64,000 nt of DNA from NCBI GenBank assembly GCA_051294905.1, contig CM119371.1, positions 870,001 to 934,000 of the forward strand, written 5' to 3'. The position numbers and the translations under genes are program-made. Numbering within the stretch: position 1 is the stretch's first letter; each line of letters starts with the position of its first letter. The notes beneath the pieces were generated by a model that saw only the letters and a program-made list of their open reading frames with translations, made no database searches and was not told the DNA's origin. This document shows, piece after piece, positions 7,421 through 19,585 of the stretch. This stretch comes from Botryllus schlosseri. Lineage: Eukaryota.

Positions 7421-7834
7421 ACATCAGTGTTGTTCAAAAACAACTTTTTCGCCAAATTTCACTGTCTCATGAACAAAATGGTTAGGTTGGCTTGAAAAAA
7501 GGTTGCACGCTAGATTTGGCTCAATTCCAATATGCAGAAGTCAAGCTATCAGATTTTACAAAAAAAATTTAATTTATTGAAAAAATAAAATATTTTATGA
7601 AATTTTACTGGCTATTGGGCTCGAAAGTCACGTGACTTGTGGTTCGCTGGGGCCAAACCACTATCTTAGATAGGCGCTGCCCGTGTTAATGTCCGATATT
7701 GGTCTGTTTTCAATTCGTATTTTCTGTCTTTGTAAGGTTGTTTGTAGTACAGTTGGAGGTTTTATGGAATCAGCGAGTTTCAGGGTTTTTAGATGGTTAC
7801 TAGAATATTTTATGTTATTTTACAGTCGCTCAAA

Positions 7835-9318
7835 ATGCCACAGTGTTGCGTGCCACAATGTCGTAATAGAAGAGAAACCAATCCAGAGTTGTCTTTCTAT
7901 CGACTTCCGAAATGCAAGAAAGCCATGGGAAAGTGGCTGAAATTGATAAGGAAAGGAGTGGATGATGAATTGTATTTAAATTATTAAAGGCTCTGCTTTT
8001 TTATGCCAAGACCGTGTAATCAATGGCAATTATTTTGAGATGAACCACTTTAATTAGATTTTTGTAATGTATTTTAGGAGAGAGAAAGAGTTCACGCCAA
8101 CGACAAATACAAGAATATGCAGCTGGCATTTTCCAATGGGCAAGGTGGCAGGACCTACTAGATTTGAGTGGAACGAAGGCAAGAGAATAGACTGCAGTAG
8201 CCCTGAGAAAAGAATGAGGATATCCACCCCCCCCCCCAAAAAAAACATTCAGATTTGTTGACCACAAATAGTGAATGTGCTACATGTACAGGGATACATG
8301 CAGAAAATGATGATGTGGAAGAAATGAAAAAACAAATAGCTATTTTCAGGAAACGTGTGTTAGCTCTTGAGAAAGAAAAAGATGAATTACGTTCAGATAA
8401 TATAAAGTTAAAACAGGCCAATCACAAGCAATTCATCGACAGTTTTAAAGATAGTGCAGAGAAGATAGCTATGTATACTTCGTTACCGGACAAAAAAACT
8501 TTCGACATAGTTGTTGCAATGATACAGCGGTTTACGGTTAAGTATCATTCCAACTGGAATGTTAAAATCCTCTCAATCGAAGACCAAGTGTTGCTAACTC
8601 TGATGAAATTAAGACTCAACTTGCCAAATCTAGATTTGGCTGTTCGCTTCAATGTTAGTACAGGCACTGTTACCAATGTTTTTCTAAGTTTGATTGAGGT
8701 CATGCATGCCATTTTCCACACAGGTATGATGGTCAAAAAGTTTCCGTCATTGCTCAAATGCCAGATGAGTGCTCCAGAGTGTTTCCGTAGTTTTCCTAAC
8801 TGCAGAGTAATTTTAGATTGTACTGAAGTACGAACAGCCAAACAAGATGATCTTGGCAAAAATTGTCAAACGTTTAGCCACTACAAAAAGGTAACACACT
8901 GAAAGCATTAGTTGGAGTCGCACCTAATGGAACGATTACGTTTGTGTCAGAACTTTATGCAGGCTCCACGTCAGATAAGGCCATTACAAAAGATTGTGGA
9001 ATCCTTGACTTATTGAAACCTGGGGACTTAATTTTAGCTGACAAGGGGTTTGCAATTCACAGCATACTTCCTCCAGGAGTTACTGTGAACCATCCATCAT
9101 TTTTAAGCAATCCTCAATTCACTCCTCAGGAAGTATCAGCCAACAAAGAGTTATCGCGAGCCCGTATTCATGTTGAAAGGGCGATACAGCGAATTAAAGT
9201 TTTTCGTATCTTGGAGTTCATTCCACACCATTATCGACACCTATCCAGCAAGATATTTCAGTGTGCTTCATGCTTGGCAAATCTGCAGACCCCAATCATC
9301 CAAAATGCTTATAAATAG
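7835..9318 (+). CDS. Transposase: THAP zinc finger, coiled coil, HTH_Tnp_4-like and DDE_Tnp_4-like domains (exons ~7835-7950, 8078-9318; two frameshifts at homopolymer runs)
   Basis: MPQCCVPQC...WLKLIR|R...RICSWHF (THAP C2CH); [27 protein letters not shown] (HTH); catalytic motifs [24 protein letters not shown]. Frameshifts at the C/A run ~8227-8245 and the A run ~8885-8889. Confidence 0.92.
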
Positions 9319-17730: not shown

Positions 17731-19585
17731 CTGAAAGGAAATACATTGTATCACTTACACGGTAATGTCAGTGTCAGTGTTACTGTTGCTAAATGTCTAT
17801 TCCTAACGAACTACCGTCTCTCTATACGTTACCCATGCTATGCGGAAGGTTTATTGGCAATTTTATCAGTTCAGTCTAATCCTAACGAACTACCGTCTCT
17901 ATATACGTTACCCTCCATTTGTAAGTAAATAAATCCTTCTTGCAGCTTGCACTTTCGTTACACGAACACCAGATTTGATGAGAAACTCCGAGCAGTGGCA
18001 CAAATTGCGAATTGGAAACGCGTTCAGAGAATACCAAACCAAGCGCTTGGCCCCAAACGGCAGTTGTTATGAAAAAATGTCACGTGACTTTCGAGCCCAA
18101 TAGAAAATAGAATCGCGGCAGACATGGCTCAGGTGGAGTGCAAATAACTTATTTTTTAGATCGAAAAAGGGGGTTCTCGAATCCCGACAAATGACCTGAA
18201 ATTTCAATAAAATTTGACTTCAGATGATTGCCCCCATTTTACAGCCGGTATTTTCCCAATTTTTGCGCGCGAGGGGATAATATTGCCCATCTGCCATCTC
18301 AAGAATTACTGGTCGTACAGTCATGATATTTAGCTCAAAAGCTGTCAAAACATCATGTGTCTATCAGTCTTACGAAGAAAGTTTTCTCTATTGTCCAGTG
18401 GACAGCAATTTTTTCTAAATAACTTACGTGTCAAGTATATTTGTTGATGGTGCATAACCAAAACATACAGGTATCGACACTAAGTTTGAATGCAGATAAG
18501 ACCGAGATGCTCGTTTTAAATAATGCCAGTCATAATTTCACTGTGAACATCAATCATAAACAAATCTCAATATGTGACTCAGCAAAATATCTCGGCGTCT
18601 CCATTGATTCCAAATTGTCTTGGAAGCAGCATATTGAATGCACAATATCAAAACTAGCTCGGTGTGGGGGAATAATGACCCGTCTCCAATCTTTGGTTTC
18701 CAGATCAGTACTACGAACAATCTACTTCTCTCTTTTCCACTCGCATCTGCAATATGGAATCGTAGTATGGGGAAATGCATGTACAACATTTTTGTGCAGA
18801 ATTTGAACCCTGCAAAACCGTGCGATACGGCTGATCTCATCTGTACCTTTACGTACCAATTTATCGCCTTACTACCGTAAGCATCGAATTTTGCGAGTTG
18901 GTGAACTGTATCGCTTCGAAGTATCAAAAGTTGTTCACAAATATTTTTCCAATAGTCTCCCTCCTGTGTTTGATGACTTTTTCATACCTGCTAAACATGT
19001 CCATTCCCATTACACGAGATCTTCGTCTAAAGGAAACGTCTACTTACCCCAACCCAATAGCAACCTAACTAAGGCTGCGTTCATCGTTCGGTTTCGCCAC
19101 GAGTCATGGTGAAAACCCGGTACCAAAACCAGCAATGTGAACGCAAGCGAACTTCGCAACGTGACGGTGAACGCATTGGTTTCGACATCGACGTCACAAT
19201 TGACGGCTTAATGAACGCACTGGTTTTGAGGAGAAAATTTTGACGCCGTTTGGTGTGACGCTTCCCCGTTCATATCAAAGTATTGGAAGGATGAACTCTA
19301 TGAATGCAGGAAAGTACCAATATGGTATAGCGCAGTTGTGCGAACCTGATGAGTGCTCTGCTCACGTCTGTTTGTTGATCAATAGGCCTGTATGGATGTT
19401 AGCGTAAGGAACCTCTTCTCGATTGCTTCGAAGCAATGAATCATAACGTAATGTACTTGCAGTATTTATGATTGATCAAAGCTTATAGCAACCGCAGTAG
19501 CCCCTCTGAGGAATATTTCAACAAGGTAGATACAAGCCTGATATGTTGTTGTTTCATTAGGCTATAAGCTTAAGTCTATTTTCAG

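Follow-up and report, generated by a model that had tools for sequence, protein, structure and literature searches.

Histone gene 3' ends captured between the two genes of an ISL2EU-like transposon in Botryllus schlosseri

What are the 3' ends of histone genes doing behind the two genes of a transposon? The question is raised by a 64,000-nucleotide stretch of the Botryllus schlosseri genome (assembly GCA_051294905.1, contig CM119371.1, positions 870,001 to 934,000, or C1:870001-934000 in our numbering), hereafter the window, in which positions 7617-18098 are a DNA transposon with a transposase gene and a SWIM-YqaJ gene in convergent orientation. Between the two stop codons lie pieces of an H4 and an H1 gene, together with their 3' stem-loops. 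We find that this block was copied from the host's own histone genes, that it entered the transposon once, and that the lineage carrying it continued to move. The explanation that we favor, and hold to be probable, is that filler DNA was captured passively and tolerated between the two genes, with the histone signals travelling as passengers. The block is composed as follows.

9341-9571, plus strand: H4 remnant, codons 27-102 and the stop, ending in GFGG followed by the stop; it begins 22 nt past the transposase stop
9597-9648, plus strand: H4 3' stem-loop in duplicate, with one stem at 9604-9619 and the other at 9630-9645, each a perfect GGCTCTTTTCAGAGCC; fold z = -5.4
9646-9675, plus strand: presumed U7-binding histone downstream element ACCCAAACTTGTTGAAACTCTATAGAGAA, different at 3 bases from the histone array on contig C8
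9676-9865, no strand assigned: captured H4-H1 intergenic spacer, with an AATAAA at 9745-9750 that is also in the C8 array
9866-9912, minus strand: H1 3' stem-loop (stem 9909-9894) and downstream sequence, with TATAGAG in the downstream part
10079-9946, minus strand: H1 C-terminal remnant, interrupted in frame by a stop at 10038-10036 and shortened by a 69-bp deletion, stop and deletion both common to a further copy of the element on C3 (L021)

An initial annotation, made from the letters of the window alone, had recognized these parts, and all are there in the sequence: H4 codons 27-102, the two perfect stem-loops, the H1 remnant and the H1 stem-loop. It was also right that no AATAAA separates either stop codon from its stem-loop in the window, and the same is true of ATTAAA; besides the spacer motif on the plus strand, an AATAAA stands at about 9328-9323 on the minus strand. 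The stem-loops follow the stops at a distance of 285 nt (H4) and about 175 nt (H1). Three intact stem-loops had been described and three are present, the H1 one (GGCTCTTTTCAGGGCC) containing a U.G wobble; as the same wobble occurs in all three native arrays, it is the native H1 form. The second H4 stem-loop is the product of a 26-bp tandem duplication found only in the window copy. The captured stem-loops are 16 nt long, have a stem of 6 bp, a loop of 4 nt and flanks of the ACCCA type, and do not differ in sequence from those of the native H4 and H1 genes; in the window, C7 and C13 copies of the element the 30 nt downstream of them are near-identical to the native arrays. The RF00066 profile found no U7 small nuclear RNA (snRNA) gene in this genome, nor in control genomes. 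The histone coding remnants have decayed. Compared with the genome's own H4, the H4 remnant carries four amino-acid changes (G41D, V to I, E to Q and R to K); G41D and four others had been counted, and the M84 change drops out because the genome's own H4 has L at that position.

The source of the block is the host's histone array. The native 5.8-kb array unit has the order H1> <H4 H3> <H2B H2A>, with H1 and H4 tail to tail, and the block was copied from such a tail-to-tail pair. It is closest to the C8 array, at 94.7% identity in H4 coding sequence, 96% in the stem-loop and downstream element, 89% in the spacer and 94% in H1 coding sequence; base identities of about 95% for H4 coding sequence and about 89% for the spacer are those of the C13 copy (L023) against the C8 array. 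With the block aligning to native arrays at these identities, chance resemblance is no issue. A stem-loop pattern search returned 44 matches, located in the arrays (C8, C1:6.16 Mb and C6), at an isolated site (C3:13280260) and in transposon copies on C1, C7 and C13. The histone-bearing copies of the element, on C1, C3, C7 and C13, lie away from the arrays.

The arrays themselves deserve a remark. The main 5.8-kb array reaches the very end of contig C8 (C8:28365000-28423820) and another begins at base 1 of C6 (C6:1-6000). The assembly has probably truncated or collapsed the arrays, and the true donor variant may therefore be unrepresented. Within the C1 histone array (C1:6162000-6171000, L031), positions 3661-8601 of that stretch hold open reading frames (ORFs) of 512 and 1126 amino acids beside an H4 gene, which we read as a putative non-long terminal repeat (non-LTR) retrotransposon.

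In this genome H4 DNA has served as a donor repeatedly: it was captured at least two further times, in both cases cut before the stem-loop. At C3:15778813-15782072 (L019, positions 929-2202) a complete H4 ORF has a leader of about 55 nt and a 3' untranslated region (UTR) that is cut just before the stem-loop; this H4 is the 365-bp loop of a palindrome whose arms of about 455 bp are 97-99% complementary, and it looks like another H4 capture, by a foldback-type element. At C16:14266739-14269986 (L020, positions 949-1987) a frameshifted H4 without a stem-loop lies inside a palindromic element resembling a miniature inverted-repeat transposable element (MITE), and the same family is nested in the window at 13051-13733.

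How often, and in what form, did the block enter the transposon? The histone block and the two halves of the element, one with the transposase and one with the second gene, were searched for in the 495-Mb assembly. Nine transposase-bearing copies were found, and seven of them keep the region between the genes. The histone block is present in four of these seven informative copies, namely the window, C3:6997k (L021), C7:19626k (L022, at C7:19,623,785-19,629,296) and C13:24201k (L023), and the remaining three are histone-free (C3:3209k, L027; C3:21045k, L028; C3:13663k, L024/L025). The C10 copy (L029) and C3:937k (L026), both truncated before the region between the genes, are left out of this count. 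As a description of the family's 3' regions, the histone arrangement fits the four copies with the block; the other three keep ordinary, histone-free 3' regions, in which the genes are separated by 445 bp and a further stretch of about 280 bp, unrelated in sequence.

The junctions fix what was exchanged. All four histone-bearing copies have one and the same right junction, which falls 3 nt beyond the stop codon of YqaJ and shows a 2-nt AC microhomology; microhomology at the left capture junction amounts to 1-3 nt. The C7 and C13 copies keep the 445 bp, and their H4 begins at codon 9 (GLGKGGAKRHRK...), so the original event replaced only the approximately 280 bp, by 796-838 bp of histone DNA. 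The captured piece starts at H4 codon 9 and takes in the remainder of the H4 reading frame with its stop, the 3' UTRs and stem-loops of both genes, the spacer between them and the final ~70 codons of H1. The junction 22 nt past the transposase stop is younger than the capture: the window and L021 copies have in common a later deletion of about 500 bp (the 445 bp plus H4 codons 9-26, with CC microhomology), which created it. Close spacing between transposase stop and stem-loop is for the same reason confined to the window and C3 sublineage, and in the C7 copy the distance to the H4 stem-loop is about 750 nt. In the C3 copy L021 all stem-loops have been deleted.

Maximum-likelihood trees were built for nine copies from the left 1.7 kb of the element and for seven copies from the right 2.3 kb. 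In both, the four histone-bearing copies form one clade (support 98/97 and 100/100, respectively), in which C13 branches first, then C7, then the window together with C3. Since these copies are one clade and have an identical right junction, there was a single capture event, inherited by the lineage. The block is a real part of that lineage, confined to no single copy. An assembly chimera, or a reverse history in which transposon fragments inserted into a histone array, is hardly credible: the same junctions occur on four contigs, within complete elements bounded by both terminal repeats, real arrays stand elsewhere (C8, C1, C6), and histone DNA is absent from the flanks of the elements.

After the capture the lineage stayed mobile. 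It occupies at least four loci on four chromosomes, which amounts to at least three further moves, and the flanks of the C7 and C13 copies are unique. The window copy is abutted on its left by a related, internally deleted fragment that we call element B; of 93 candidates for the B family the best 40 were scored, and about 30 of these show close to 79% identity across the first 350 bp. On the left, both the window copy and the C3 copy have element B; on the right they differ. Their homology breaks off precisely at the right terminal repeat and, on the other side in C3 (C3:6993374-7000422), at the left terminal repeat of B, which suggests that B and the main element moved as a composite unit. 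A plain segmental duplication of these two copies was set aside as the less likely reading, because the homology is bounded exactly by terminal repeats.

These observations can be joined into a course of events in which the mechanism of repair is the tentative part. One exchange in one lineage swapped about 280 bp between the genes for about 840 bp of tandem histone array; it was likely a repair accident, in which the gap left by excision was filled through a template switch guided by microhomology. The insert survived because the gap between the stop codons is the only spot where an autonomous element can take up foreign DNA with its genes and terminal repeats unharmed. The lineage kept moving, to four or more loci, the histone coding remnants then decayed, and the window copy, a late descendant, carries in addition the ~500-bp deletion, the stem-loop duplication, its frameshifts and its nested insertions. 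The histone 3' signals are perhaps cleaved incidentally, without selection for them, and would then play no adaptive role. Passenger status is favored by the lack of significant conservation in the stem-loops, by the C3 copy that is without stem-loops, by the two palindromic elements that hold H4 without a stem-loop, and by the precedent of a Culex Helentron as described in the relevant passages of PMC4067079.

Do the histone signals nevertheless serve the transposon? On a co-option reading, the lineage would use the captured stem-loop and downstream signals through SLBP and the U7 small nuclear ribonucleoprotein (snRNP) to make non-polyadenylated mRNAs that follow S phase or are kept in oocytes. 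The genes concerned would be SWIM-YqaJ and perhaps the transposase, with their expression timed to DNA replication. We consider it unlikely, and the following observations are those that weigh against passenger status and keep the alternative in view.

Judged from the arrangement of signals, the case for co-option is strongest for the SWIM-YqaJ gene. On the YqaJ strand of two histone-free copies (L027, L028) the YqaJ stop is followed at about 28 nt by an AATAAA (in L024/L025 the site is disrupted by a nested insertion), and comparison with these two shows that the capture removed it; the H1 3' end took its place. The H1 stem-loop now stands about 175-250 nt past the stop, and the next minus-strand AATAAA follows 570-690 nt beyond the stem-loop. 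With the proximal AATAAA gone, the H1 stem-loop and its downstream sequence are the first recognizable 3' signal, and the lineage moved at least three more times after the loss. The remaining stem-loops are intact in all three copies that keep the region (window, C7 and C13), which are also the copies whose stem-loops and following ~30 nt so closely match the native arrays. The histone-bearing clade has the shortest terminal branches and is the youngest, and it includes the only one of the nine copies in which transposase exon 2 is free of frameshift and stop, that on C7 (L022); there the SWIM- and YqaJ-bearing frames are open too, with an insertion of about 270 bp further upstream in the same gene. 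The later deletion brought the H4 stem-loop from about 750 to 285 nt past the transposase stop, and the sublineage moved again. Under co-option this deletion and the stem-loop duplication in the window sublineage would be refinements, an idea that we regard as doubtful. On the transposase strand, finally, the unmodified region between the genes is without canonical AATAAA or ATTAAA in all three histone-free copies, so the block may have supplied a needed 3' signal.

Sequence variation among the window, C7 and C13 copies leans in the same direction, but without significance. The stem-loops and downstream element have 2 variable sites in 107, against 133 in 3271 for the rest of the element (p = 0.19), and all 3' UTR sequence has 3 in 160 (p = 0.11). 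The coding remnants vary more than the background (27/365, p = 0.002) and also differ from the stem-loop regions (p = 0.012); this contrast arises because the coding remnants are rich in CpG, with 8-9 per 100 bp versus 2.4. The impression that intact stem-loops beside decaying codons point to selection, which had been called suggestive, accordingly finds no significant support.

Other observations speak against co-option directly. The match between the orientation of the block and that of the transposon genes, first read as meaningful, is automatic: a tail-to-tail block places sense histone ends behind both genes in either orientation, and the match is uninformative. The insert also sits at the one permissive position that the element has. 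In the C7 copy, the only one that looks intact, the full ~750 nt separate the transposase stop from the H4 stem-loop, with 445 bp of the original 3' region still in between. An AATAAA follows the H4 stem-loop at a distance of about 100 nt. Every stem-loop is lost from one of the four copies with the block. The gene context differs as well from that of histone genes, which are intronless and clustered: the transposase has a split THAP domain and a predicted intron, the second gene is probably multi-exon, and the copies lie outside the arrays. Pandey and colleagues are said to have reported in 1990 that introns shift the choice of histone 3' ends. Location matters because, as the pertinent passages of PMC4896059 have it, histone 3' processing is efficient where its factors are concentrated at the histone locus body, with read-through to downstream cryptic polyadenylation signals otherwise.

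Such downstream signals open a second way in which the block could matter. The spacer may have given an ordinary polyadenylation signal or terminator between the convergent genes, with the stem-loops irrelevant. This would suit the transposase strand, with its lack of canonical signals in the three unmodified copies; the spacer AATAAA is present in all three copies keeping the spacer and in the C8 array, and cryptic downstream polyadenylation signals are described for native histone genes (PMC4896059). Against it, the unmodified copies evidently transposed without any captured signal, and the variant hexamers AATAAG, TATAAA and CATAAA were already there in the unmodified region. We think it improbable, more so than co-option, and passive capture with passenger signals remains our preferred account.

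What kind of element carries the block? Judging from its domains, two-gene layout, GG ends and core length, it is an ISL2EU-type cut-and-paste transposon of the PHIS superfamily. The transposase has the Pfam domains THAP (1.2e-07), HTH_Tnp_4 (1.5e-16) and DDE_Tnp_4 (up to 5.5e-43), the last covering the full 158-position profile in the C7 copy, L022. YqaJ scores 42.7 bits (9e-11) in the C7 copy, against a cut-off of 22, and only 21.9 bits in the window copy because half of the domain is deleted there; the SWIM domain reaches 19.7-20.4 bits (cut-off 19.6). The core of the element is near 5 kb long, or about 4.8 kb with the histone block discounted. All 14 of 14 termini in the nine copies read ATT and then GGGCTCG. 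Comparison of the termini only places an AT near the repeat, but with a T in between, and the base before the AT is C, T, A or G. These ends are compatible with an AT target duplication of the ISL2EU kind, though they depart somewhat from its published pattern. The parts of the window copy and its left neighbor are these.

6553-7616, plus strand: element B fragment, related and internally deleted, about 79% similar to the 5' end of the main element, abutting its left end
7617-7636, plus strand: left terminal inverted repeat GGGCTCGAAAGTCACGTGAC, preceded by ATT
7835-9318, plus strand: transposase gene, with a THAP exon from the ATG at 7835, then HTH_Tnp_4 and DDE_Tnp_4; stop at 9316-9318
about 7962-8077, plus strand: predicted transposase intron, proposed from splice-like motifs and the split THAP domain
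9319-9340, plus strand: 22-nt remnant of the original 3' region; the following 445 bp and H4 codons 9-26 are deleted in the sublineage
10083-11114, minus strand: 3' part of the SWIM-YqaJ gene, stop at 10085-10083
11115-16662, no strand assigned: nested insertions foreign to the element, 5.5 kb, with an abundant young repeat and the palindromic MITE-like element at 13051-13733
16663-16761, minus strand: element sequence common with other copies
16762-17463, no strand assigned: second nested insertion, not in other copies
17464-18098, minus strand: right end of the element, including the terminal inverted repeat on that side
18079-18098, right end of the element: right terminal inverted repeat GGGCTCGAAAGTCACGTGAC

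The window copy is a dead, degenerate late descendant. Two frameshifting indels break its transposase frame, and a deletion of about 590 bp at 10476/10477 has removed the N-terminal half of the YqaJ domain. The open frames of the second gene are split into several pieces, which are probably exons. A transposase-H4 fusion protein was considered and rejected, because the frame of the H4 remnant differs from that of the transposase; the H1 remnant is likewise out of frame with YqaJ. Among the nested insertions, 11115-12100 is part of a very abundant and very young repeat with only short ORFs: in the best 40 of 2097 candidates scored, all those outside the window are 99-100% identical. To the right of the element, open frames at 18423-19112 resemble what we take to be the C-terminal part of a non-LTR reverse transcriptase.

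Published ISL2EU elements, in the sections of Han et al. 2015 that describe them (PMC4482050), have two ORFs, one with DDE, HTH and THAP and the other with YqaJ, terminal repeats that begin with GG, a 5'-AT-3' target duplication at A|AT|T targets and a length of about 4.8 kb. The present element resembles this group (PMC4482050) in its DDE/HTH/THAP transposase and YqaJ ORF, its GG-starting repeats, its AT-rich target and its length near 4.8 kb without the block. It differs in the roughly 840 bp of host histone-array DNA between its genes, in a SWIM zinc finger added to its second protein, and in its flank, which is N-ATT before GGG where the published form is A-AT before GG (PMC4482050).

Histone mRNAs are, in the statement given in PMC4604434, the only known cellular mRNAs with a stem-loop end. 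In their stem-loops, flanks and downstream sequence the captured ends match the genome's own H4 and H1, and thereby replication-dependent histone 3' ends. Unlike those, they stand behind non-histone genes, far from the arrays and 175-750 nt from the stops. U7 snRNA is described as a repressor of LTR12 elements (LTR, long terminal repeat), a different relationship from the one considered here. Our literature search found no cut-and-paste element, or any transposon, described with histone stem-loops directly behind its own genes.

For capture of H4 and H1 by a transposon we found one published precedent, Helentron-Cq-32A of Culex quinquefasciatus, eight copies of which carry fragments of the H4 and H1 (H15) genes (Thomas et al. 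2014, PMC4067079). According to the passages on this element, no other organism had a documented case of a Helentron capturing histone sequence (PMC4067079). Both cases have H4 and H1 fragments inside a DNA transposon, in several copies, with stops, frameshifts and indels (PMC4067079). Stem-loops, or fragments directly behind the element's own genes, are not mentioned for the Culex element in those passages, and the Culex element is rolling-circle whereas this one is cut-and-paste (PMC4067079).

Host gene fragments in DNA transposons are common and usually meaningless. This one consists of two complete and intact RNA-processing signals, each facing one transposon gene, and one of them replaced the polyadenylation signal of that gene. 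If co-option were true, the expression of the transposon would be coupled to DNA replication along an undescribed route, and the transposon would be the first natural non-histone client of the histone mRNA pathway. If the signals were not co-opted, the locus would still offer a dated, single-event case of filler-DNA capture in an ISL2EU element. Capture of gene fragments by DNA transposons, or transduplication, is familiar from Pack-MULEs and Helitrons. Here too a host fragment lies inside the terminal repeats at several independent loci with the parental locus elsewhere, and the likeness extends to the microhomology at the junctions and to amplification by transposition. Two differences set this case apart: the carrier appears to be of an autonomous type, and the captured piece is mainly a pair of complete RNA 3'-end signals that face the element's own genes.

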